The notes under the pieces: model-generated
What the model was told of the DNA's origin: nothing
Databases searched by the model: none
What the model saw: the letters and a program-made list of their open reading frames with translations, nothing else
Shown here: positions 9,652 to 52,958 of the stretch, piece after piece
Layout of the letters: each line of letters begins with the position of its first letter
Numbering within the stretch: position 1 is the first letter of the stretch
Translations under genes and position numbers: made by a program
Sequence record: PP400779
DNA from: Escherichia phage JM17
DNA length: 64,000 nt
Direction: 5' to 3' (one strand)

Positions 9652-10338
9652 ATGAATAGTTCTAAAGTGTTTAATAGTCAAGCTCGTGCAGTAGGTGGTT
9701 TTGCTCATGCGATTAAAAACGACCAGATTAAAAACGAGCCTATGTTCTTTAACTGCGATTTGAATTTTGCTTTTGATAATGGCGGTCCAATTACTCGTAG
9801 CTTTATCCAAAATCTCCCTGACGATTGGAAAGACTCGGATGTAGTATTTGATTCACGAGTCCACATGCTGATGCCTGGTTGGTACCCTGCTATCCCAGGT
9901 TATCACCATGACGATGTACCACGCCCGGATATTCCGGTTGGTCAACACTTTATTACTGCAGGACAACCTGACTATGACAATCCTCGCTATTTGTCTGAAC
10001 ATATTCTTGGTCTTGTTAACGCTGATGTGTGTCCTACTCATTTTGCAACAGGAACTGCAGAGTTCAGTCAGATTCCTGATGGTGAACTTATCTATCGCCA
10101 GTGGCACAAAGAAGTCCTCGAAAAAATCGAAAAAGGCGAACTAGAGAAATGGGAAGCTCCAGATCGTACTCTTCTTCAGTTTGATTGGCAAACATGGCAC
10201 ACTGGTTCTCGTGCAATTAGTAACGGATGGCGTTGGTTCGGACGTGTATCTCGTAATACAGACCGAGTTAAAAAGATTACCAATGAAATTCGTGTCAATG
10301 CCCAAGTTTATCTGGAATTCCCTATGGAAGGCTGGTAA
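9652..10338 (+). CDS. hypothetical protein
   Basis: 228 aa; no motif recognised. Confidence 0.45.
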   Translation: MNSSKVFNSQARAVGGFAHAIKNDQIKNEPMFFNCDLNFAFDNGGPITRSFIQNLPDDWKDSDVVFDSRVHMLMPGWYPAIPGYHHDDVPRPDIPVGQHFITAGQPDYDNPRYLSEHILGLVNADVCPTHFATGTAEFSQIPDGELIYRQWHKEVLEKIEKGELEKWEAPDRTLLQFDWQTWHTGSRAISNGWRWFGRVSRNTDRVKKITNEIRVNAQVYLEFPMEGW

Positions 10339-10829
10339 TGATTAACAAAACATATTGGTCTAATATAGACGATGGCAACGAAGGTATTTCGTATTATTCA
10401 GTAGATTGGACAGGATGTCCATCCTACTTAGTGAAACATATTTGCCAAGAATTTAAAATCAACCAGCCAGCAGGTATTATCGTGAACAGATACATTAATG
10501 GATATCAACCTATCGATGAAGTAATACGAACAACTCAAGCTGAGCTTGAAAAGTTTTTCAATAAGTGCCAATGGATAACAGGATGGATTATATTTGTACC
10601 GTCAGTGTGGTTTTTTAGTACTAAAGTAAGTGCCTTTGCTATACTAGATATTATCGCTATCTTATTAGCATCTACTATCGTAAGTATAATTGGCGGTATA
10701 ATTGGTGGAGGTACTGTAGGCATCATTATTAATCTTGTTAAAAGTAGTTTACAAGAACGTAAAGACAAGATAAAGGCCAAGAATAATGAAGTTGAACGTT
10801 TTATTACCGAATGCAGGAATTTGAGATGA
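10338..10829 (+). CDS. membrane protein with glycine-zipper helix (IIGGIIGGGTVGIII)
   Basis: 163 aa; ATGA overlap with upstream ORF. Confidence 0.45.
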   Translation: MINKTYWSNIDDGNEGISYYSVDWTGCPSYLVKHICQEFKINQPAGIIVNRYINGYQPIDEVIRTTQAELEKFFNKCQWITGWIIFVPSVWFFSTKVSAFAILDIIAILLASTIVSIIGGIIGGGTVGIIINLVKSSLQERKDKIKAKNNEVERFITECRNLR

Positions 10830-11062
10830 GTATAGCAATTTACATTAAATCAGAATCATGTGATAGTTATCTGTACACATACGATAAAGATGTGTCAGAA
10901 GAAAAAATCAAAGACGATCTTAATATGGACCTTGATATGTTCTGTCCTATTGCAGATTACAAACTTGCGGTCTCTAATAGTGAAAGTCCATCTAAAGAAA
11001 CGCGCATTGAAGAATTTATATCTGAACTAATGGCCAAATCATGGGACCGAGATGATGAGTAA
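10826..11062 (+). CDS. hypothetical acidic protein
   Basis: ATGA overlap with upstream ORF. Confidence 0.4.
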   Translation: MSIAIYIKSESCDSYLYTYDKDVSEEKIKDDLNMDLDMFCPIADYKLAVSNSESPSKETRIEEFISELMAKSWDRDDE

Positions 11063-11510
11063 GAAAAATAAAGTGAAAGAACTATCAGCCGGTATTATTT
11101 TCCTTACCGAAGATAAAGAATTATTCATGGGGCGTGTAACTGGTTCTCGTCATAAAGGTGCATTAGCTCATCGGTGGGATATTCCTAAAGGCCGTGTCGA
11201 ACCTGGCGAATCTCCTATTGAAGCCGCTATTCGTGAATGCGAAGAAGAAACTGGGTTTACACAATATGACCCTGCCTTCCTGAAAGACCTAGGTGAACAT
11301 CATTACTCAGACAATAAGAATATTCATCTGTTCCTATATACCATCCCTGTAGAGCACGAGCAATTCAGAAACAGTGTTTGTAATTCCTATCATACATTCC
11401 CAGACGGACGACAGATTCCTGAATTTGATGCATTCGCTTTAATTAAACCTTCTCAATGGGAATATGTAATGGGCAAATCATTATATAAGGTGCTCACTAC
11501 CCTCCTATAA
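11052..11510 (+). CDS. nudE: Nudix hydrolase (T4 NudE-like)
   Basis: Nudix box GRVEPGESPIEAAIRECEEETG; located next to lysozyme gene e. Confidence 0.8.
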   Translation: MMSKKNKVKELSAGIIFLTEDKELFMGRVTGSRHKGALAHRWDIPKGRVEPGESPIEAAIRECEEETGFTQYDPAFLKDLGEHHYSDNKNIHLFLYTIPVEHEQFRNSVCNSYHTFPDGRQIPEFDAFALIKPSQWEYVMGKSLYKVLTTLL

Positions 11511-11512
11511 GT

Positions 11513-11544
11513 AATAAATACCTCCTATAAACGTGGGAGGTATT
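11513..11544 (+). promoter_or_regulatory. RBS-sequestering hairpin with embedded late-promoter-like AATAAATA upstream of gene e
   Basis: stem TACCTCC (11519-11525) / GGAGGTA (11536-11542) contains the SD GGAGG; ATG at 11545. Confidence 0.5.
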
Positions 11545-12033
11545 ATGAATATATTTGAAATGCTTCGTAATGACGAAGGTCTTAGACTGACTTTATACAA
11601 AGACACTGAAGGCTTTTGGACGATTGGCATAGGCCATTTGGTAACAAAGAACCCGTCTTTAGCCATAGCTAAAGCTGAACTTGACAGAATTATCGGACGT
11701 AAATGCAACGGTACAATTACCCTTGATGAGGCTGAAAAGCTATTTAATGAAGACGTTGATAAAGCCGTTCGCGGAATCTTGGGTAATGCTAAACTTAAAC
11801 CGGTATATGATTCTTTAGATGCGGTTCGTCGATGTGCATTGGTCAATATGGTCTTCCAAATGGGTGTAGCAGGCGTCGCCGGTTTTACTAATTCTCTTCG
11901 TATGCTTCAACAGAAACGTTGGGACGAAGCGGCAGTAAATCTAGCCCAATCTAAATGGTATCGTCAGACACCTAATCGCGCGAAACGCGTAATCTCAACA
12001 TTTAAAACAGGAACTTGGAAAGCGTATATATGA
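11545..12033 (+). CDS. e: lysozyme (endolysin, T4 gene e)
   Basis: [32 protein letters not shown]... near-identical to T4 lysozyme as recalled; catalytic E11/D20/T26 context present. Confidence 0.95.
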
Positions 12034-15190: not shown

Positions 15191-15649
15191 ATGACTATCA
15201 ATTCAGACGTTTTTATCCGCCGTAATAAACTCCGTCGAATCTTTGAAACGGAGTTCCGCAAAATAAATGCCGGTATAAAAGATGCTGCAAAGTCTCTTGG
15301 ACTACCAGGCTTTCATATCAAGTATTCTCAACATCTCTTAGATCGTGCCATCCAGAGAGAAATAGATGAGAATTACGTTTTTGAATTATTTCATAAAGTA
15401 AAAAATCATGTTAAAGAAGTTGCAGAATTTTTATCAATGCCGGCACGTCCAGATGTTGATGAAGATTTTGTCGAAGGTGTCGAATATCGCCCAGGCCGTT
15501 TAGAAATAACTGATGGAAATCTTTGGTTAGGACTTACAGTTTGTCGCGAAAATCCAGCATTCAAAATGAAGACTCTTCAATGCAGAATGGCTATTATTAA
15601 CAGTAAACGACTACCAGGAAAAGCTTCTAAAGCAGTGATTAAAATCTAG
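15191..15649 (+). CDS. hypothetical protein
   Basis: 152 aa; no motif recognised. Confidence 0.45.
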   Translation: MTINSDVFIRRNKLRRIFETEFRKINAGIKDAAKSLGLPGFHIKYSQHLLDRAIQREIDENYVFELFHKVKNHVKEVAEFLSMPARPDVDEDFVEGVEYRPGRLEITDGNLWLGLTVCRENPAFKMKTLQCRMAIINSKRLPGKASKAVIKI

Positions 15650-15657
15650 AGGTAAAC

Positions 15658-16200
15658 ATGAGAAAAGCACTACTCGCTGGTCTATTTGCTCTTTCGTTAT
15701 CAGCATATAGCTCCGAGCATACTTTTAGTAATGTCCAACTCGATAACTTGAATTATGCTTATCAGTTCGGGGAACAGTTTTCTAAGGACGGAAAATTTAA
15801 AACGCATGAAAATATGCATAAGAAAGGACTTGGATACATAATGGCCGCAATACTATGGCAAGAATCATCTGCCGGTATTAATCTTAAAGATAAGAAAGGT
15901 CACCATGCGTATGGAATGTTCCAAAACTATCTACCAACAATGAGGGCAAGAATTAACCAGCTTGGTTATAATATGACTGATGCCCAAATTAAGAAAATGC
16001 TATCTAAGCGGTCTAATTCAGCCAGATGGGCTTATATCGAATTTTCTTATTGGTTAAATATACATAACGGGGATATAAGGAAAGCTATATCCTCATATAA
16101 TGCGGGATGGAAGACAAGTGCTGGAAGTAAATATGCTTCTGAAGTCCTAGAAAAGGCTAATTACCTTAAATCAAATAAACTACTGGAAATAAAAGAATGA
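15658..16200 (+). CDS. secreted lytic transglycosylase-like (SLT domain) protein
   Basis: signal peptide MRKALLAGLFALSLSAYS; SLT-like motifs ILWQESS, YGMFQ, SSYNAGW. Confidence 0.5.
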   Translation: MRKALLAGLFALSLSAYSSEHTFSNVQLDNLNYAYQFGEQFSKDGKFKTHENMHKKGLGYIMAAILWQESSAGINLKDKKGHHAYGMFQNYLPTMRARINQLGYNMTDAQIKKMLSKRSNSARWAYIEFSYWLNIHNGDIRKAISSYNAGWKTSAGSKYASEVLEKANYLKSNKLLEIKE

Positions 16201-16544
16201 CCAAAATGTTGGCTTTAATAGTTGGCTTGGTTTCATTTAACGCTCTTGCTAATACTACATATACTGATGTAACGGAGTATACAAACAGAACGGCGTCTGA
16301 TTATTGTGGTAAAAGTCGAGAGTGTAAAGTAGATTTTTCACAAAAATTGTTATATGCGTATAAAGACGGAGAAAAAGATGGGGCGTCTAGTAGGTTCAAG
16401 GCGTCTACTTTAATTAAAAGATACTATAAAAAATGGCAAATATTAGAATGCTCGGTGGCGGAACCTAAAGATAAGGCAGCATGCAATTCTATGGTGGACC
16501 GTCTAGTTGACTCTTATACTAGAGGACTTGCAGCAAGTGATTAA
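16197..16544 (+). CDS. secreted/periplasmic small protein
   Basis: signal peptide MTKMLALIVGLVSFNALA. Confidence 0.4.
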   Translation: MTKMLALIVGLVSFNALANTTYTDVTEYTNRTASDYCGKSRECKVDFSQKLLYAYKDGEKDGASSRFKASTLIKRYYKKWQILECSVAEPKDKAACNSMVDRLVDSYTRGLAASD

Positions 16545-27400: not shown

Positions 27401-27874
27401 ATGTTATTATCAGGCGCAAAATATAAAGAAGAAAAACAAAAATTTTATGATGCACAGAATGGTAAGTGTCCTATTTGCCACCGTGAATTAGACCCTGATG
27501 TTCAAGGTAACCATCTTGACCACGACCACGAATTAAACGGGCCAAAAGCAGGTAGAGTTCGTGGGTTACTCTGTAATCTGTGCAACGCAGCAGAAGGTCA
27601 AATGAAGCATAAGTTCAACCGTTCCGGTCTTAAAGGACGTGATGTCGACTACCTCGAATGGCTTGAAGCTCTTCTTGTTTATTTGAAACAAGATTATTCT
27701 GATAATAATATCCATCCTAATTTTGTTCCAGACAAAACTAAAGAGTTCTCAAGACTAGGTAAAGAGGAAATGATGGCTGAGATGCTTCAAAGAGGATTTG
27801 AATATAATGAATCTGACACCAAAACACAGTTAATAACTTCATTTAAGAAGCAGCTTAGAAAGAGTTTAAAATGA
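27401..27874 (+). CDS. 49: endonuclease VII (Holliday junction resolvase, gp49)
   Basis: 157 aa; CPICHREL...HLDHDHE...CNLCN zinc/HNH-like motifs. Confidence 0.9.
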   Translation: MLLSGAKYKEEKQKFYDAQNGKCPICHRELDPDVQGNHLDHDHELNGPKAGRVRGLLCNLCNAAEGQMKHKFNRSGLKGRDVDYLEWLEALLVYLKQDYSDNNIHPNFVPDKTKEFSRLGKEEMMAEMLQRGFEYNESDTKTQLITSFKKQLRKSLK

Positions 27875-28692
27875 ATGTAGTATATAAACTATCATTTATT
27901 AGTAGAATTAATGCTAAAACCCCGCCATATTATTATATTGGAAGTAAAACCAATTGCACTTTTGACGGAACGAATATTATTGATAAAAATGGTAAATTTT
28001 ATTATTCGTCTTCGTCATCTTCCGAATTTCAAAAAGCTCTGTTGAAAGAAACACCGAAAGTTGAAATATTATATTTTCAATTAGTCGGAGATGAACAAAT
28101 AACTAGCATTGAAGCTGAATTTCAAAAGAATATAGAAAAAGATATATGGAATAAAGAGTATTTTAATTTAGCATATGCTAATGGTCAATTTACAACGTAT
28201 GGTGTTTCTCCTTCTAAAGAAACTAGAGAAAAGCAATCAATAACCATGATTAAAAGAAATCGTAATAAAGGTAAAAATCATGGATTTTATGGAAAGCATC
28301 ATACTAATTTAGCCAGAAAGAAAATATCAGAAGCTTCTAAAAAATACTGGAAAGAAAATCCACATCATGGATTTTCGCACACAAAGGAAGCTAAAATTAA
28401 AATTGGAATTTCATCTTCTATCAGGCATAAAGGAAGTGGAAATCCGATGTACGGCGTAAAACCTTGGAAAACTCCTAGAGCAATTAAATCTGGTACTTAT
28501 ATATTATGGTTAAAATACGCAGAAATTTTATATGATTATTTAGGTCCGGATTTTAAAAGTAAATCATCTATTTTTGCGGAGTTAAATTTACCGAAATTTA
28601 GAATTGATAATTTCATCAAAAGGTTTAAAATGGGTTGGAACCCATATTTAGACGAAGAATTTCAAAAGGATAAATTAGAATTATGTCTTTAG
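27871..28692 (+). mobile_element. free-standing GIY-YIG-type homing endonuclease gene
   Basis: VYKLSFI...YYYIGSKTN catalytic motif; NUMOD3-like repeats GKNHGFYGKHH and GSGNPMYGVKPW; AT-rich. Confidence 0.55.
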
Positions 28693-30500
28693 AGAAAGAT
28701 GTTTTAAATTTTATTTCAAATAAAGATAAAGAATTAAATACCGAAAATGCCAACAAAGATTCTCGTGTCTTTCCAACAAAAAGAGATTTAATGGCCGGTA
28801 TTGTTTCTAAACATATCGCTTGTAGTATTCTTCCGAGCCATATTGTAAATGCTCATAATGTCGGATTAATTCATTTTCACGATTTAGATTACAGTATATC
28901 ATTGCCTTTTACTAATTGCTGTTTAGTAGATTTAAAAGGAATGCTTGAGAACGGATTTAAGCTTGGTAATGCACAGATTGAAACTCCTAAATCAATTGGC
29001 GTTGCTACTGCAATTATGGCACAAATTACTGCACAGGTTGCTTCTCACCAATATGGCGGAACGACTTTTGCTAATGTAGATAAAGTACTTTCTCCTTATG
29101 TTAAACGCACCTATGCAAAACATATTGAGGATGCAGAAAAATGGCAAATCGCCGATGCGTTGAATTATGCTCAATCCAAAACAGAAAAAGATGTCTATGA
29201 CGCATTTCAAGCTTATGAGTATGAAGTAAATACTCTTTTTAGCTCAAACGGTCAAACTCCTTTTGTTACTATAACATTTGGAACAGGAACTGACTGGACT
29301 GAACGAATGATTCAGAAAGCAATTCTGAAAAATCGTATTAAAGGCCTTGGTCGTGATGGAATAACTCCTATTTTCCCTAAGCTTGTTATGTTCGTTGAAG
29401 AAGGCGTTAATCTTTATAAAGACGATCCGAATTACGACATTAAGCAACTTGCTTTAGAGTGCGCAAGCAAAAGGATGTATCCTGATATTATTTCAGCTAA
29501 GAATAATAAAGCTATCACTGGTTCATCTGTTCCTGTTTCTCCAATGGGTTGTCGTAGTTTCTTGAGTGCATGGAAAGATTCGACTGGTAATGAAATTCTT
29601 GATGGACGTAATAATCTTGGTGTTGTAACACTGAATCTTCCTCGTATTGCGTTAGATTCTTATATTGGAACACAGTTCAATGAACAGAAATTTGTTGAGC
29701 TATTTAACGAACGAATGGACCTGTGTTTTGAAGCTTTGATGTGTAGAATTAGTTCCTTAAAAGGAGTTAAAGCGACTGTTGCTCCTATTCTTTACCAAGA
29801 AGGTGCATTTGGGGTTCGTCTTAAACCTGATGACGACATAATTGAGTTATTTAAAAACGGTAGAAGTTCAGTGTCCCTAGGATACATTGGTATTCACGAA
29901 TTGAATATTCTTGTCGGTCGTGATATTGGGCAAGAAATTTTAACTAAAATGAATGCTCATCTTAAACAGTGGACTGAAAGAACCGGATTTGCTTTTAGTT
30001 TATATTCTACTCCTGCTGAAAACCTTTGTTATCGCTTCTGTAAACTTGATACAGAAAAATATGGAAGTGTAAAGGATGTCACTGATAAAGGCTGGTACAC
30101 TAACAGTTTCCATGTTTCAGTAGAAGAAAATATTACTCCGTTTGAAAAGATTTCTCGTGAAGCGCCATATCATTTCATTGCGACAGGTGGTCACATTTCT
30201 TATGTTGAACTTCCTGATATGAAAAATAACTTAAAAGGTCTTGAGGCCGTATGGGATTATGCTGCACAACATTTAGATTATTTTGGCGTTAATATGCCAG
30301 TAGATAAATGTTTTACATGCGGAAGTACCCATGAAATGACTCCTACTGAAAACGGATTTGTTTGTTCAGTTTGTGGAGAAAGTGATCCTAAAAAGATGAA
30401 CACCATAAGAAGAACATGCGGTTATTTGGGAAATCCGAACGAACGAGGATTTAATCTCGGTAAAAATAAAGAAATCATGCATAGGGTTAAACACCAATGA
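28683..30500 (+). CDS. nrdD: anaerobic ribonucleoside-triphosphate reductase (class III, NrdD)
   Basis: 605 aa; C-terminal glycyl radical motif RRTCGYLG; Cys-rich zinc site; uninterrupted (no intron). Confidence 0.95.
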   Translation: MSLEKDVLNFISNKDKELNTENANKDSRVFPTKRDLMAGIVSKHIACSILPSHIVNAHNVGLIHFHDLDYSISLPFTNCCLVDLKGMLENGFKLGNAQIETPKSIGVATAIMAQITAQVASHQYGGTTFANVDKVLSPYVKRTYAKHIEDAEKWQIADALNYAQSKTEKDVYDAFQAYEYEVNTLFSSNGQTPFVTITFGTGTDWTERMIQKAILKNRIKGLGRDGITPIFPKLVMFVEEGVNLYKDDPNYDIKQLALECASKRMYPDIISAKNNKAITGSSVPVSPMGCRSFLSAWKDSTGNEILDGRNNLGVVTLNLPRIALDSYIGTQFNEQKFVELFNERMDLCFEALMCRISSLKGVKATVAPILYQEGAFGVRLKPDDDIIELFKNGRSSVSLGYIGIHELNILVGRDIGQEILTKMNAHLKQWTERTGFAFSLYSTPAENLCYRFCKLDTEKYGSVKDVTDKGWYTNSFHVSVEENITPFEKISREAPYHFIATGGHISYVELPDMKNNLKGLEAVWDYAAQHLDYFGVNMPVDKCFTCGSTHEMTPTENGFVCSVCGESDPKKMNTIRRTCGYLGNPNERGFNLGKNKEIMHRVKHQ

Positions 30501-30967
30501 ATTATGATAGATTTTATCCTTGCGATTTTGTGAATGGCCCTGGTTGCAGGGTCGTTCTTTTCGTTACAGGTTGTTTGCATAAATGTGAAGGGTGTTATAA
30601 TAAATCAACATGGAATGCTAGAAATGGTATTCCATTCACTGGTGAAACACTAGAACAATTAATTGAATGCTTGAATAATGATTATATAGAAGGATTGACT
30701 ATAACCGGAGGAGACCCTCTCTATCCTGACAACCGAGATGTTATTCATTGCATTGCTCAAACAGTAAAAAATCTTTATCCCAATAAAAGCATTTGGTTGT
30801 GGACAGGATATAAGTTTGAAGATATTAAACAACTAGAAATGCTTAAATATGTTGATGTTATTATTGATGGGAAGTATGAGAAAAATCTTCCGACTAAAAA
30901 GCTGTGGCGAGGATCAGATAATCAGCGACTTTGGTCAAATACCGATGGGGTGTGGAAACATGATTAA
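30497..30967 (+). CDS. nrdG: anaerobic RNR activating enzyme (radical SAM, NrdG)
   Basis: radical-SAM cysteine cluster in GCLHKCEGCYN; ATGA-coupled to nrdD. Confidence 0.9.
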   Translation: MNYDRFYPCDFVNGPGCRVVLFVTGCLHKCEGCYNKSTWNARNGIPFTGETLEQLIECLNNDYIEGLTITGGDPLYPDNRDVIHCIAQTVKNLYPNKSIWLWTGYKFEDIKQLEMLKYVDVIIDGKYEKNLPTKKLWRGSDNQRLWSNTDGVWKHD

Positions 30968-45707: not shown

Positions 45708-46343
45708 ATGAAAACTACTCCTATTACTATCGCTATTGACGCAATCATAAAACAAGCTTCTTCTTTGGCCGCTATGGCCAAAGTAATTAGTCAAAACCCT
45801 GCTCGTTATAATGCTATTCTAGAAACTCTTCGACGCCCTGGACTTAGTAATTATGAAAGCCGGGTAATTATTACAGGTGTTGGTAAGAATGCTAATATCG
45901 CAACTAAAGCTTCCGAGACATTTGCTTCACTAGGTATTCCTAGCATGTATTTGAACACTGGGCATTATTCTCACGGTGATGCAGGATTCATTGCGCCTAA
46001 TGATGTGTTGATTCATATTAGTCGTTCTGGTAAGACTGAAGAAATGATAGGTGTTGCTAAACATCTTCGTATGATTCGTCCTCAGGTTAAACAGATTCTG
46101 TTACATTGTAACCCAGACATTCCACAAGAATACGAAGCTCTTTTTGATTATACGTTCTGTACTGGCATCGCGGTAGAGGTTGATGAGAATTCTCTGGCTC
46201 CGACTATGTCCACTACATTGTTGTTAGCGCTTATCGATACGTTTGCTATCAACCTTTCGTCTGAACGTGGATTTACCTCTAATGATTTCCTTAAGTTCCA
46301 TCCAGGCGGTGCACTAGGTGCCATGTTACGAGGCGAACAATGA
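45708..46343 (+). CDS. SIS-domain sugar-phosphate isomerase (KdsD/KpsF/GmhA-like)
   Basis: 211 aa; SIS motifs ITGVGKNANIATK and ISRSGKTEE. Confidence 0.55.
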   Translation: MKTTPITIAIDAIIKQASSLAAMAKVISQNPARYNAILETLRRPGLSNYESRVIITGVGKNANIATKASETFASLGIPSMYLNTGHYSHGDAGFIAPNDVLIHISRSGKTEEMIGVAKHLRMIRPQVKQILLHCNPDIPQEYEALFDYTFCTGIAVEVDENSLAPTMSTTLLLALIDTFAINLSSERGFTSNDFLKFHPGGALGAMLRGEQ

Positions 46344-48210: not shown

Positions 48211-48956
48211 TACATTATCTCTACAAAACTACTAATCTTATAAACGGTAAAGTTTATTTAGGAATGCACTCGGCTGAAGAAGCCGAGCCTTTAGATTTAT
48301 ATAAAGGTTCTGGTAAATTATATAAAAAGGCTGAAAGGAAATATGGGAAGGAAAATTTTCTTAAAGAAATCATTTCCTACCATAGCTCAAGAGAAGAATT
48401 AAAAATAGCTGAAAAGGCTCTAATAACATTAGACATAGTTAAAGACCCAAATTATTACAATCTTAAAACTGGTGGCGAAGGTGGTTCTGACGGGTTATCC
48501 CAAAGGTCCAAGGATAAAATTTCTAAGGCAAATAAAGGACGTTTAGTTGGTGATAAAAACCCAAGATGGGGTAAAACTTTGTCAGCTGAATCTATAGCTA
48601 GGGGTAAAGAAAAGCACAGGAGGTATGGTAAACCTGCATTACATGGTCTAAAGATTAATGTAGATGGCAAATATTATGAATCCTGTCGGGAAGCGGCTAA
48701 AGATTTAGGTATATCTTCTGCCACGATTCAAAAGAGAGTAAAATCGCCTAAATATCTTAATTATCGGTATCAGGACGAAAGCAAAAATGCTCACAAGTCT
48801 CAAAAATTTGTTAAAATAAACGAAAATTACTATGAATCTCTTAGGATAGCTGAAAAGAAAACGGGTATTCCTAGAAAGCGTATAGCTGATAATATTAAAA
48901 ATTCTATTGAAGGATATTGCTATGAAACCATTACATCTTTGCGTGGACGTCGATGA
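48195..48956 (+). mobile_element. GIY-YIG homing endonuclease gene (Seg-like)
   Basis: IHYLYKTTNLINGKVYLGMHS; NUMOD3-like repeats; overlaps both neighbours (16 nt upstream, 35 nt downstream). Confidence 0.55.
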
Positions 48957-49296
48957 TTGTATAACAGAGTGGAATAACAATCGTGATTACGTGAACTTCA
49001 AACCAGACGTCGAAATGGTGTCTGCCATTAATGCCCTGTATGATGCAGGGCATACAATAACGCTTTACACTGCTCGAGGTATGAAGTCAGTAGGTCCTGG
49101 TCGTATAGCAATTGACATTCTCCCAAGTCTGATTCAGAACTTGGCAAACATTGGCTTGAAGTACCATAATTTGCTAACACATAAACCAGTATATGATTGG
49201 ATTATCGACGACAAAGCTATGCGTCCTGACGAATTCAAAGCTCTTATGAATAAAGGCGAATTCGAAACATTTAAATCATATAAACCGAATCTATAA
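48922..49296 (+). CDS. HAD-superfamily phosphatase (KdsC-like small sugar-phosphate phosphatase)
   Basis: motif I LHLCVDVDDCIT, motif II TLYTARG, Lys in THKP, motif IV WIIDD. Confidence 0.55.
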   Translation: MKPLHLCVDVDDCITEWNNNRDYVNFKPDVEMVSAINALYDAGHTITLYTARGMKSVGPGRIAIDILPSLIQNLANIGLKYHNLLTHKPVYDWIIDDKAMRPDEFKALMNKGEFETFKSYKPNL

Positions 49297-49353: not shown

Positions 49354-50514
49354 ATGAATACTTTTAAAATTGGAACGAATTTTGATTTAGCTCTTCTTGA
49401 TAAAATCGTAGAGCTCAATAAAACTTATCCTAATAGCTTGATAAACGAAGTATACGGCTCTACAAGAGAAATGGCTTTTGTAGCAGCCAGACCTGATTTT
49501 AGGCTTCCTGACGTTGACAAAAAGATGTTAGAAGATTACGTTAAACGTTGTAACGAATTAGGTATTTGCTTTAACTATACACTCAACACGATAAATCCTG
49601 GTTCAAAAAGAGAACTAGTTGAGTGGAAGAAGAAAGCTATTCAGGATTATGTTCAGTATCTTTGGTCAATAGGCGTATGGCGTATTACTATCGCTAACCC
49701 TGTTGTTATGGAAATTGTTCGTGAAGTCAATAAAGACATTGAGATTGAAGTTTCAACAATTCTACATGTCGATGCTGTAACTCAAATCAAATACTTGCAT
49801 GACCAGTATAATATCAAAAAGGTCTGCTGTGGAATTCATAAGAACCGTTCAGTTTCTTTCCTGAAGCGTGCAGCAGAGTTTTGCAATAAGAACAATATAA
49901 TATTTGAAGTTCTTGTAAATGAGTTCTGTTCTAATGCCGGTAAAGGGTATACAACACATTGTAGCTATCGTGACTCTTGCTATATTTTCCATAGTACTGA
50001 TGTTACAGCTGATGATGCTAAATCCTTAAACGGATATCCTATGCAGCACTGTATTAAAGCTCGTGATACAGACCCATTTAACTGGTTGAGAACTCGTTTT
50101 GTTCGTCCTCAAGATTTGAAACTTTATAATGATATTGGTATCACTCAATTCAAAGTTTCAGGACGTACAGGTAGCACAGACTACATTTTGAAAGTTCTTG
50201 AAGCATACGCTTCTGAAAAGTTTGAAGGTAATTTGTTAGAACTGTGGAAGCCTTTAGAGACTATTTTCACTCTTGAAAATGAGACCGAGTTTTCACATAC
50301 GGTAAATATTGAAACCTCTTTGTTAGATGGCTTTTTAGAAAAAAGGTGGTTCAGACATCCAGATTTCGATTGTGCTAATGAGATCTGCGGGACGACGTGT
50401 ACATATTGTGAAAGATATTATAAACGTCAGTTATCTAAAAATGGGTTAGCAGAAAACTCTATATCTATTATTGATATAACTAACTCTGATGACGCTTTGA
50501 GGTACCCGGAATGA
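49354..50514 (+). CDS. Cys-rich enzyme of unknown function (possible metal/Fe-S protein, U32-like features tentative)
   Basis: 386 aa; Cys clusters VCCGIH, FCSNAGKGYTTHCSYRDSCY, CANEICGTTCTYCERY. Confidence 0.45.
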   Translation: MNTFKIGTNFDLALLDKIVELNKTYPNSLINEVYGSTREMAFVAARPDFRLPDVDKKMLEDYVKRCNELGICFNYTLNTINPGSKRELVEWKKKAIQDYVQYLWSIGVWRITIANPVVMEIVREVNKDIEIEVSTILHVDAVTQIKYLHDQYNIKKVCCGIHKNRSVSFLKRAAEFCNKNNIIFEVLVNEFCSNAGKGYTTHCSYRDSCYIFHSTDVTADDAKSLNGYPMQHCIKARDTDPFNWLRTRFVRPQDLKLYNDIGITQFKVSGRTGSTDYILKVLEAYASEKFEGNLLELWKPLETIFTLENETEFSHTVNIETSLLDGFLEKRWFRHPDFDCANEICGTTCTYCERYYKRQLSKNGLAENSISIIDITNSDDALRYPE

Positions 50515-50792: not shown

Positions 50793-51509
50793 ATGGGAAA
50801 ACATAACACAATGAAATATATCAAAGCCGCAGATTTTCAAACCGCATTTAAAGCAGTCAATCGTGAAATTTTAGAAAACCCGGAATTCGTAACTGATTCT
50901 CGTATTGGACGTTGTAATGAAATTGGGTCTATGACAGTAGTTGTTGACACTCCATCATCATTCAAAATGACTGACCCACGTATTAACCGCATCTCTTATG
51001 AATATGCCGAAGACTTCTGGAAGTTTATGATTTCTGGTGGTACCAACGCAGAAGAAGCGTTTAAGGCATATCCTAATGTCGCTAAATTTATTTCTAAACC
51101 AAAATCAGATGTTTTGCCGGCGAACTTCAATACTTTCTATGGTCCTCGCATTGCGGCCCAATTACCAGCTCTTCTAAAAGAACTTAAAGAGAAGCCTAAC
51201 TCTCGAAGAGTTGTGTTCCAAATTCTAGAAAGTTCTGATCAGGCTTTGCTTGATTCGGATGAAACGCTTGAATATCCATGTACTGACTCAGTGACTTATT
51301 ATATTCGTGATGGTAAGCTTTATACCCACTGTCATATGCGTTCTCAGAACTGTGCTGTTGTTATGCAGTTGGATTTTTATCTCCAAGGAAAATTACTTCA
51401 TTATATCGCTAACGAATGCGGTGTAGAAGTTGGTGATTATACTCATACCATGGTAAGTGCCCATGTGTTTGAACGTGATTTTGATTATGTTAAAGGATTC
51501 CTTGACTAA
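50793..51509 (+). CDS. 42: dCMP hydroxymethylase (thymidylate synthase family, gp42-like, divergent)
   Basis: 238 aa; nucleophile Cys in EYPCTDSVTYYIRD; MRSQNCAVVMQLDFY with Asp at the pyrimidine-specificity position (Asn in thymidylate synthases). Confidence 0.65.
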   Translation: MGKHNTMKYIKAADFQTAFKAVNREILENPEFVTDSRIGRCNEIGSMTVVVDTPSSFKMTDPRINRISYEYAEDFWKFMISGGTNAEEAFKAYPNVAKFISKPKSDVLPANFNTFYGPRIAAQLPALLKELKEKPNSRRVVFQILESSDQALLDSDETLEYPCTDSVTYYIRDGKLYTHCHMRSQNCAVVMQLDFYLQGKLLHYIANECGVEVGDYTHTMVSAHVFERDFDYVKGFLD

Positions 51510-52409: not shown

Positions 52410-52958
52410 ATGGCTAAAATTATTTTAGTAGATGGCCCGGATAATGCTGGTAAAACAACTTTCATTAATGACATAATGGAAATTAGTGAAAGATATGTAA
52501 AAATTGATTTCCCTAAACGAACAGTTGATGGACGTTTCGATGTTAAGTCTCGAAATGAAGTTGGCTGTTTTGAAACGATGTTGAATTATTTAGACCCTAC
52601 TAAGATTTATCTGTTAGACCGTGGATATATTAGTAACTGGGTTTACGGACGTATTCGACAAGATGCGGACTCGGTTCTTGACGTTTATGAACAGGATTAT
52701 ATTCGTCTTTGCCAAAACCATGATGTGTTCACAATTATTTTAACACGTAACGAAATGACTGAAAGTTTTGAAGATGACCTTATTACTTTGTCTTCATTAG
52801 GTTTTAATACAGTCATTTCACATTTTGAAGAGTTTGCAATTCATAACAAAATCCAAACGTATCAATTACTTAATCATGATGGTGCTAACAAAGTTATAGG
52901 ATTTAATGCAAGCGAACGTAATGATTTGATTACAGAAATCATCAAATGGGCTCGTTAA
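52410..52958 (+). CDS. P-loop nucleotide kinase (thymidylate-kinase-like)
   Basis: IILVDGPDNAGKTT plus DRGY motif in LLDRGYISNW. Confidence 0.5.
   Translation: MAKIILVDGPDNAGKTTFINDIMEISERYVKIDFPKRTVDGRFDVKSRNEVGCFETMLNYLDPTKIYLLDRGYISNWVYGRIRQDADSVLDVYEQDYIRLCQNHDVFTIILTRNEMTESFEDDLITLSSLGFNTVISHFEEFAIHNKIQTYQLLNHDGANKVIGFNASERNDLITEIIKWAR

Follow-up and report, generated by a model that had tools for sequence, protein, structure and literature searches.

A U32-family protein of the DNA-modification cluster of RB69-like phages is a candidate oxygen-independent, prephenate-dependent cytosine hydroxylase

The U32 gene and the modification cluster

We analyzed a stretch of 64,000 nucleotides (nt) from Escherichia phage JM17 (sequence record PP400779), referred to below as the window, which belongs to an RB69-like T4-type phage of the genus Mosigvirus. 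The gene under study, at positions 49354 to 50514 of the plus strand, is an ATG-to-TGA open reading frame (ORF) of 1,161 nt encoding a U32-family protein of 386 residues, the opposite strand being crowded with stop codons. The DNA of this gene was 99.6% identical to that of phage vB-Eco-KMB38, and its product was 99.5% identical to the RB69 counterpart (RB69 gp50, RB69p050). The gene and its two main cysteine-containing regions, which include candidate ligands of iron-sulfur (Fe-S) clusters, are as follows.

49354..50514 (+): U32-family protein, 386 residues, orthologue of RB69 gp50; candidate O2-independent, prephenate-dependent cytosine-C5 hydroxylase
49906..50052 (+): U32 core motif E185-C233 (E185, E190, C192, C203, C209, C233); candidate Fe-S/active-site residues
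50371..50409 (+): C-terminal CX4CX3CX2C (C340, C345, C349, C352); candidate second metal or Fe-S site

The protein contains 13 cysteines (positions 66, 72, 158, 159, 177, 192, 203, 209, 233, 340, 345, 349, and 352), accounting for 3.4% of its residues versus 0.8 to 2.1% across ten neighboring proteins. An earlier note made from the letters of this DNA had described a cysteine-rich protein of 386 residues with three clustered-cysteine motifs, and this description was confirmed: VCCGIH, FCSNAGKGYTTHCSYRDSCY, and CANEICGTTCTYCERY are located at residues 157 to 162, 191 to 210, and 340 to 355, respectively. Ten of the cysteines (C158, C177, C192, C203, C209, C233, C340, C345, C349, and C352) were invariant in an alignment of 35 homologues with identities down to 46%, in which all the residues of the U32 core motif listed above were invariant or at least 90% conserved. 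Among 128 far more diverse representatives, C192 and C233 were kept in 127 to 128 and the C-terminal CX4CX3CX2C in 98 to 113. Comparison with phage Bas46 gave a dN/dS ratio of 0.018 for the gene, indicating strong purifying selection; between genera, pN was 0.09 to 0.16 and synonymous sites were saturated. This conservation indicates that the cysteine pattern is under selection and not due to chance.

Pfam scanning returned a sole match for the protein, the Peptidase U32 family (PF01136; 42.2 bits versus a gathering cut-off of 22.4), with residues 94 to 286 covering positions 2 to 192 of the 233 positions of the profile and with no DUF3656 or other domain. The loose likeness to U32 enzymes mentioned in the earlier note was thus borne out, and the fold search that it had proposed gave a match to the solved U32 representative PDB 5d88, a TIM-like barrel. 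Searching the PDB by sequence (phmmer and profile) gave no informative match, the hits being to IraP, a serine kinase, and BIM1 (E values of 0.008 to 1.5), and a fold search of the viral BFVD library returned only orthologues of the U32 protein and unnamed proteins. In profile comparisons with the four E. coli paralogues, RlhA ranked first (E = 4.9e-6 over 204 columns), followed by TrhP (E = 0.0045) and UbiU (E = 0.0085); UbiV gave no match. The weakness of the TrhP and UbiU matches indicates that the phage protein falls in neither of these subfamilies. The single NCBIfam match, to UbiU, scored 18.5 bits versus an equivalog cut-off of 440, and no RlhA, TrhP, UbiU, or UbiV orthologue was assigned. 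Judged by these comparisons, the protein represents a separate, phage-borne U32 clade and is the orthologue of no characterized subfamily.

The glutamate and the two cysteines of the U32 signature are present in the phage protein. E185, C203, and C209 share alignment columns with E161, C169, and C176 of RlhA and with their equivalents in UbiU and TrhP, the spacing between the cysteines being C-x5-C versus C-x6-C in RlhA, TrhP, and UbiU (E-x7-C-x6-C). The three RlhA residues and their TrhP equivalents are essential (PMC5727448, PMC6599085), and C176 of UbiU is required for its 4Fe-4S cluster (PMC10990095). A four-cysteine 4Fe-4S ligand motif has been described for UbiU and UbiV and is reported to occur in the majority of U32 proteins. 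In the phage protein, the U32 motif comes after a clade-specific insert of 11 residues, in which C192 lies, and the GxCxxAC segment located downstream in the E. coli U32 proteins is absent. C192 and C233, both invariant, could provide the other two ligands of a cluster at C203 and C209. Together, the clade cysteines of the U32 core and of the C-terminal CX4CX3CX2C would be sufficient for two metal sites, and Fe-S binding by the phage protein is plausible on this basis. We rejected a radical SAM assignment based on C345-x3-C349-x2-C352, since there was no Radical_SAM Pfam match at E ≤ 0.1. It is also disfavored by the position of the motif at the extreme C-terminus rather than in N-terminal position and by the presence upstream of a fourth invariant cysteine, C340, with which the C-terminal site would be fully ligated (radical SAM enzymes leave one iron open).

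In GenBank, the gene is labeled "peptidase," "putative peptidase," or, in the Bas46 record, "putative enzyme involved in UDP-arabinose biosynthesis," and the PHROG group of the protein (5757) is annotated "peptidase." RB69 gp50 appears in PMC13326640 solely as a table entry, "Sugar or heterocycle reductase," from a fold match to 5d88, and the running text of that paper mentions neither gp50 nor chorismate nor anaerobiosis. In Escherichia phage OLB35, the gene is annotated as two proteins of 269 and 108 residues (BFVD A0A3G3MCS7 and A0A3G3MCT7), due to either a frameshift or a sequencing error; the record of RB69 itself likewise splits genes 46/47 and 52/53.

As the earlier note had also stated, the U32 gene lies inside a DNA-modification cluster. 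Its neighbors there are a HAD phosphatase gene on one side and a thymidylate synthase (TS)-like gene on the other, the latter encoding a 5-hydroxy-dCMP (5hodCMP) synthase. The cluster is flanked by the T4 replication module (clamp, clamp loader, RegA, DNA polymerase, UvsX, and gp41) and contains the following features in addition to the U32 gene.

45708..46343 (+): SIS-domain arabinose-5-phosphate isomerase, orthologue of RB69 gp55 (Pfam SIS; PMC13326640)
46525..48210 (+): bifunctional nucleotidyltransferase-kinase, AfhE-like, RB69 gp52:53, which makes UDP-arabinofuranose (Pfam NTP_transferase and kinase-like matches; PMC13326640)
48195..48956 (+): GIY-YIG/NUMOD homing endonuclease (Pfam I-TevI_DNA-bd, NUMOD1, NUMOD3, and SegE_GIY-YIG)
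48907..49296 (+): HAD-type phosphatase, AfhF-like, RB69 gp51 (NCBIfam TIGR01689, 50 bits, below cut-off; PMC13326640)
50511..50750 (+): ORF of 79 residues, RB69ORF049c family, PHROG 8601, coupled to the U32 gene by an ATGA overlap
50793..51509 (+): TS homologue, 5hodCMP synthase, orthologue of RB69 gp48 (Pfam Thymidylat_synt, 56.9 bits; PMC13326640)
51509..52408 (+): putative DNA alpha-arabinosyltransferase 1, orthologue of RB69 gp46:47 (PMC13326640 Table 1); homologues abut U32 in distant viral loci
52410..52958 (+): thymidylate-kinase-like nucleotide kinase, orthologue of RB69 gp45 (PMC13326640 Table 1); Thymidylate_kin is the commonest match beside distant U32 genes

RB69 DNA contains arabinosylated 5-hydroxycytosine (5hoC) and not hydroxymethylcytosine (PMC13326640, 2026). 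Hydroxylation of dCMP is catalyzed by the TS homologue gp48, which is flavin bound and takes its oxygen from O2, as established by 18O2 labeling and by in vitro work of He et al. that is cited there (PMC13326640). The TS-like enzyme binds flavin mononucleotide (FMN) loosely, needs reducing equivalents, and suffices, together with a kinase, in E. coli (PMC13326640). The isomerase and the AfhE-like and AfhF-like enzymes convert ribulose 5-phosphate to UDP-arabinofuranose via arabinose 5-phosphate, arabinose 1,5-bisphosphate, and arabinose 1-phosphate (PMC13326640). According to the published description of the cluster, the unmodified precursor is removed by a phage dCTPase.

The homing endonuclease gene sits between the AfhE-like and phosphatase genes, overlapping both ends, and appears to be a mobile seg-like element within the modification cluster. 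Bas46 has no such gene at this site, and in phage LC53 the corresponding position is occupied by a "putative endonuclease." Scanning for promoters and terminators yielded no excess of matches over shuffled sequence.

Linkage to chorismate mutase and distribution of the clade

In Enterobacter phage Entb_45, the U32 gene is directly followed, with an overlap of 4 nt, by a gene encoding an AroQ chorismate mutase (CM; Pfam CM_2, 40.9 bits versus a cut-off of 27; PDB 1ybz, E = 3.5e-8). CM is likewise encoded downstream of U32 in LC53 (Winklervirus), TG1 (Tegunavirus), PM2 (Mosugukvirus), 92A1, Thanatos-1, and Pm5461 (Proteus, Bragavirus). Over the seven Straboviridae lineages examined, CM_2 scores ranged from 34.7 to 46.8 bits, all above the cut-off, and the overlap with the U32 gene was often of 4 nt. 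In Shewanella phage Thanatos-1, the U32-CM pair is relocated across the TS, glycosyltransferase, and kinase genes and is still coupled. A tblastn search identified CM in at least 51 phage records, with U32 beside it in every one; the count is a lower bound, since the query, the Entb_45 CM, missed the CM of the Proteus phage. R8, R25, K36, E49, S71, and Q75 are invariant in the phage CMs, and four of the five spacings between these residues are equal to those separating what we take to be the active-site residues of the E. coli enzyme (R11', R28, K39, E52, S84, and Q88), the exception being E49-S71 (22 residues versus 32). These comparisons indicate that the phage CM is a genuine AroQ chorismate mutase. 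N-terminal extensions of 40 to 55 residues are present in the CMs of LC53 (L006:5884-6228, 114 residues) and Pm5461 (L015:5399-5785, 128 residues), the length being 79 to 85 residues outside these two phages.

The product of chorismate mutase is prephenate, and DAHP synthase catalyzes the entry step of the shikimate pathway. Fusions of DAHP synthase to CM are encoded directly beside U32 at four distinct uncultivated viral loci (L045:8332-9384; L041:8411-9430; L044:7302-8354, counted as one locus with L043; and L055:11079-12194). These fusions suggest viral reprogramming of aromatic metabolism, at the entry of the shikimate pathway, to supply prephenate. With a G+C content of 36.8%, a genome of 168 kb contains ~62,000 cytosines, and a burst of 100 to 200 amounts to 6 to 12 million hydroxylations. 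If prephenate is consumed stoichiometrically, this demand would give phages a reason to encode CM and DAHP synthase. Genetically, RlhA and TrhP need prephenate (PMC5727448, PMC6599085), and 18O labeling has identified prephenate as the oxygen donor in UbiU/V-dependent anaerobic hydroxylation (PMC10990095). A literature search, limited in coverage, revealed no paper linking phage U32 with chorismate mutase; an earlier assignment is possible.

The 79-residue ORF that follows U32 in the window is cysteine-free, contains a conserved YYxDAFxHSxxG motif, was modeled by AF2 as three helices (pLDDT of 63), and is weakly constrained (dN/dS of 0.13 to 0.35). Database searches indicated that its family is narrow, with many truncated members, including those of many Mosigvirus genomes. 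We rejected the possibility that this ORF is a cryptic CM, since BLASTP gave no match, Pfam gave none at E ≤ 10, hhalign against the phage CM family gave a probability of 0.7%, and both families coexist in tandem in TG1, PM2, and 92A1, with the 79-residue ORF family located between U32 and CM. The 79-residue protein could be an accessory factor of the U32 protein. In one Straboviridae lineage whose U32 is 89% identical to that of the window (L017; IMGVR_UViG_2974546015_000001, 10001-11918), the TS-like gene starts 44 nt after U32, with neither the 79-residue ORF nor CM between them.

Metagenomes contain abundant proteins of ~360 residues that are about 50 to 58% identical to the U32 protein, and an exhaustive profile search retrieved 1,672 clusters (50%-identity level) at E ≤ 1e-3, including 470 at E ≤ 1e-30. 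All of the genome contexts examined for the clade were viral, except for one bacterial-looking contig (L002). On large contigs with DnaE-type polymerases, U32 is located amid genes for dCMP deaminase, thymidylate kinase, dNK, NT5C, UDG, dUTPase/MazG, and Nudix proteins; in ~45-kb family-A-polymerase phages, it lies between dUTPase and UDG or adjoins the polymerase. Our IMG/VR sample comprised 15 Straboviridae loci and 26 distinct distant loci. In each of the 15 Straboviridae loci, a TS homologue was encoded about 1.5 kb or less from U32, and no TS-like hydroxylase was found within ±10 kb of U32 in the 26 distant loci; a marginal TS match in L032 was a canonical thymidylate synthase (244 bits), not of the hydroxylase type. 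The 145 nearest neighbors in the distant loci included Pfam matches to Thymidylate_kin (9), DAHP_synth_1 (6), SIS (5), CM_2 (4), and NTP_transferase (3), and dNK, dUTPase, dCMP deaminase, and UDG were further recurrent neighbors. Local HMM and phmmer searches, with counts made before merging near-identical loci, identified homologues of the AfhE-like enzyme in 17 distant loci, of the arabinosyltransferase of the window in 14 (directly adjacent to U32 in six of them), and of the arabinose-5-phosphate isomerase in 10. Such a combination of arabinosylation genes with no TS-like gene nearby would be expected if U32 carries out the hydroxylation for which the TS-like enzyme is responsible elsewhere.

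Two of the remoter contexts differ from those of the arabinosylation loci. In two ~45-kb family-A-polymerase phages (L065:4637-6540 and L066:7673-9576), a distant clade member that has no Pfam match shares overlaps with a dimeric-type dUTPase gene on its upstream side and with a UDG-family gene on its downstream side, with no glycosyltransferase nearby, which may point to a hydroxypyrimidine that is not glycosylated or to another chemistry downstream. On the bacterial-looking contig (L002:7135-17428; ENA contig LEMO22-1 scaffold_150), where a dockerin/GH43 gene lies nearby, the clade U32 is part of an island that also encodes NT5C, an NMN transporter, a deoxynucleoside kinase, an alanyl-tRNA-synthetase-like protein, a radical SAM/SPASM enzyme, a nucleoside deoxyribosyltransferase, and a second, very divergent U32 (15227-16360). 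This island may be a different nucleoside-modification system.

U32 was present in 221 phage records, with identities of at least 80% throughout, and the hosts were Enterobacterales or Shewanella in every case. The AfhE-like marker was present in 373 records, 57 of which came from Acinetobacter phages, and none of these 57 had U32. Acinetobacter is a strict aerobe, and in these records U32 was confined to phages of facultative anaerobes. Maestro (Acinetobacter) and JS98 (an E. coli Dhakavirus) encode the isomerase, AfhE-like enzyme, phosphatase, TS-like enzyme, glycosyltransferase, and kinase without U32 or CM. DLP3 makes tri-arabinosyl-5hoC, and its described cluster contains neither U32 nor CM (PMC13326640). 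Since clusters are complete without it, U32 is an accessory module rather than a step of sugar activation or transfer.

Outside the modification cluster, the window encodes an anaerobic ribonucleotide reductase and its activase.

28683..30500 (+): NrdD, anaerobic class III ribonucleotide reductase, 605 residues (Pfam NRDD, 570.6 bits, and Gly_radical)
30497..30967 (+): NrdG, NrdD activase (Fer4_12 and Radical_SAM)

Because it encodes the O2-sensitive NrdD together with NrdG, the phage is equipped for replication without O2. The oxygen introduced by the TS-like enzyme comes from O2, and this flavin/O2 enzyme would thus provide no 5hodCMP under anoxia. Used as a second aerobe/anaerobe marker, the distribution of NrdD yielded no more than an indirect bound for Acinetobacter phages. 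Upstream of nrdD are a NUMOD3-containing ORF, probably a homing endonuclease (27871-28692), and an endonuclease VII gene (27401-27874).

Proposed function and alternatives

From the family membership, the residue conservation, the gene linkage, and the phyletic distribution, we infer that the gene probably encodes an O2-independent, prephenate-dependent hydroxylase of cytosine C5, acting most likely on dCMP and taking under anoxia the role that the TS-like 5hodCMP synthase has in the presence of O2. Among the roles that the earlier note had envisaged, a base-modifying enzyme is supported, and a transferase, an epimerase, or a mutase is not. The U32 enzyme would hydroxylate cytosine C5 without O2 to form 5-hydroxy-deoxycytidine, the acceptor base for phage arabinosylation. 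By analogy with UbiU/V, TrhP, and RlhA, the conserved cysteines would hold one, possibly two, Fe-S clusters, two electrons would be drawn from the pyrimidine ring, and prephenate would be decarboxylated, its C4 hydroxyl being the oxygen donated. The likeliest substrate would be dCMP, the resulting 5hodCMP being then phosphorylated and incorporated, and DNA itself may be an alternative substrate. The pairing with the TS-like synthase encoded two genes downstream would mirror the UbiI/H/F-UbiU/V and TrhO-TrhP pairs.

We give even chances to a broader proposal, in which a widespread and unrecognized phage clade of U32 Fe-S proteins hydroxylates pyrimidine deoxynucleotides or DNA with prephenate in place of O2 and includes the first viral and first DNA-directed U32 hydroxylase. 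RB69-like phages would then possess a dual oxic/anoxic route to 5-hydroxycytosine, relying on U32 and on the TS-like flavin enzyme, and U32 would be the sole route in many uncultivated phages, fed by their own CM or DAHP synthase-CM fusion. The U32 family is known, as is the prephenate-dependent mechanistic class in which we tentatively place the phage protein; the DNA-precursor substrate class and the role in anoxic DNA hypermodification are proposed here as new.

Several observations weigh against the proposed hydroxylase function. No CM was found in the lineage of the window (Mosigvirus), in which the slot is filled by the unrelated 79-residue ORF, and prephenate would need to come from host PheA/TyrA. 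No U32 hydroxylase, RlhA and TrhP included, has been reconstituted in vitro (PMC10990095). The likeness to RlhA comes from comparisons of a profile with single sequences (probability of 86%), and two of the four canonical U32 Fe-S cysteines align (C203 and C209), the other two being replaced by clade-specific cysteines. The absence of TS-like genes from the distant loci applies to ±10 kb, that is, 21 kb per locus. Since the Acinetobacter phages fall into a few clades, the correlation with the host cannot be separated from phylogeny. E. coli Dhakaviruses (JS98) keep the TS-like hydroxylase without U32, indicating that U32 is not obligatory for enterobacterial phages. Finally, the literature consulted, including a phage Tn-seq preprint and the Thanatos paper, contained no biochemical or genetic evidence on the gp50 protein and gave no function or essentiality for its gene.

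It is unlikely that the protein is a prephenate-dependent U32 hydroxylase with another substrate, such as RNA (ho5U34 in tRNA or ho5C in rRNA), another base, or an already modified nucleotide. The linkage to CM supports prephenate use and is silent on the substrate, all of the characterized U32 enzymes acting on nucleic acids act on RNA, and T4-like phages encode tRNAs. However, the phage protein has no RNA-specific extra domain (U32 is the only Pfam match, with no DUF3656), and its gene is embedded in a DNA-modification cluster in Straboviridae. In distant loci, U32 abuts arabinosyltransferase, AfhE-like, SIS, and nucleotide kinase genes with no TS-like hydroxylase nearby, and the genes of remoter members lie between those for dUTPase and UDG or beside that for DNA polymerase.

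We consider rather improbable that the protein acts on the sugar side, as a reductase or another enzyme of NDP-arabinose biosynthesis, as it is currently labeled. The existing annotations, the location of the gene among sugar-activation genes, and a TIM-barrel fold common to many sugar enzymes would accommodate this role. However, the route from ribulose 5-phosphate to UDP-arabinofuranose is fully covered by the isomerase and the AfhE-like and AfhF-like enzymes, DLP3, Maestro, and JS98 have the pathway without U32, and linkage to CM and DAHP synthase would have no role in pentose chemistry. To our knowledge, no U32 enzyme acts on sugars.

There is little to recommend a redox helper of the TS-like hydroxylase, for example, an Fe-S enzyme keeping the loosely bound flavin reduced with prephenate or another donor. 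The U32 and TS-like genes are neighbors in 15 of 15 Straboviridae loci, the TS-like enzyme requires reducing equivalents for its weakly held FMN, and electron shuttling is common for Fe-S proteins. However, 26 distant viral loci have U32 and no TS-like gene nearby, phages that have the TS-like enzyme and lack U32 are functional, and this enzyme and a kinase are enough in E. coli. We know of no U32 protein in such a helper role. A true collagenase-like U32 peptidase processing a phage or host protein is hardly credible despite the label "peptidase" in most records and in PHROG 5757 and the collagenolytic activity reported for the U32 proteins PrtC and HP0169, since the literature provides no known catalytic mechanism or defined catalytic residues for U32 proteolysis, the gene accompanies others for nucleotide metabolism and prephenate supply and is never found in morphogenesis or protease contexts, and the conserved residues are those required for hydroxylation in RlhA and TrhP.

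If the gene indeed encodes an O2-independent cytosine hydroxylase, this would explain how gut coliphages whose cytosine is entirely replaced by arabinosylated 5-hydroxycytosine can replicate without O2, with consequences for phage therapy and gut phage ecology. The only characterized hydroxylase of these phages is O2 dependent, and, since the dCTPase removes the unmodified precursor, the supply of 5hodCTP would limit replication. Prephenate-dependent U32 hydroxylation, which modifies rRNA, tRNA, and ubiquinone in cells, would be extended to viruses and to DNA, and phages would reprogram the shikimate pathway with CM and DAHP synthase to pay for DNA modification. A single chain of 386 residues acting on a small soluble nucleotide could allow the first in vitro reconstitution of a U32 hydroxylase. 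The labels "peptidase," "sugar or heterocycle reductase," and "UDP-arabinose biosynthesis enzyme" would be corrected.

Comparison with known systems

Mk0906 from Methanopyrus kandleri, the U32 protein of PDB 5d88, shares 14% identity with the phage protein, is composed of 247 residues, and lacks the C-terminal four-cysteine extension. Its function is unassigned, and the match thus informs on the fold and not on the activity. The E. coli 23S rRNA 5-hydroxycytidine-2501 synthase RlhA (YdcP) belongs to the same Pfam family and, of the four E. coli paralogues, came out first in the profile comparisons. RlhA and the phage protein have in common the essential glutamate and two cysteines of the U32 motif, both also contain cysteines towards the C-terminus, those of RlhA being essential, and the proposed chemistry is the same, namely, prephenate- and Fe-S-dependent hydroxylation of cytosine C5. 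RlhA differs by its size (653 versus 386 residues), the presence of DUF3656, which is absent from the phage protein, and its substrate, a ribosome assembly intermediate; identity is ~20%. The phage clade is distinguished by its own cysteines (C192, C233, and the C-terminal CX4CX3CX2C) and by the proposed deoxynucleotide or DNA substrate.

The TS-like 5hodCMP synthases (RB69 gp48, DLP3 gp80, and HY126) form the product that we propose for the U32 enzyme, 5hodCMP, in the same pathway and, in the window, from a gene located two genes away. They rely on a thymidylate synthase fold and on flavin and O2, in contrast to the TIM-like barrel, the cysteine clusters, and the putative prephenate dependence of the U32 enzyme. 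A precedent for recruiting host prephenate-consuming RNA-modification chemistry to modify DNA cytosine C5 genome-wide is provided by CmoA/CmoX of Synechococcus phage S-B43, which forms carboxymethylcytosine and for which the authors raised prephenate availability as an open issue. That system differs by comprising a Cx-SAM synthase and a DNA-acting carboxymethyltransferase, with no U32 protein and no hydroxylation.

A parallel to the proposed dual route is found in TrhP/TrhO, which form ho5U34 in tRNA, and in UbiU-UbiV/UbiI-H-F, which participate in ubiquinone synthesis. In both cases, an O2-dependent hydroxylase is paired with a prephenate-dependent U32 hydroxylase, so that the product is made across the whole range of O2 concentrations, and we propose the same logic for the phage. 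These pairs are cellular, act on RNA or lipid substrates, and are not encoded side by side, whereas both phage genes belong to one viral cluster in which the O2-dependent partner is a thymidylate synthase homologue.

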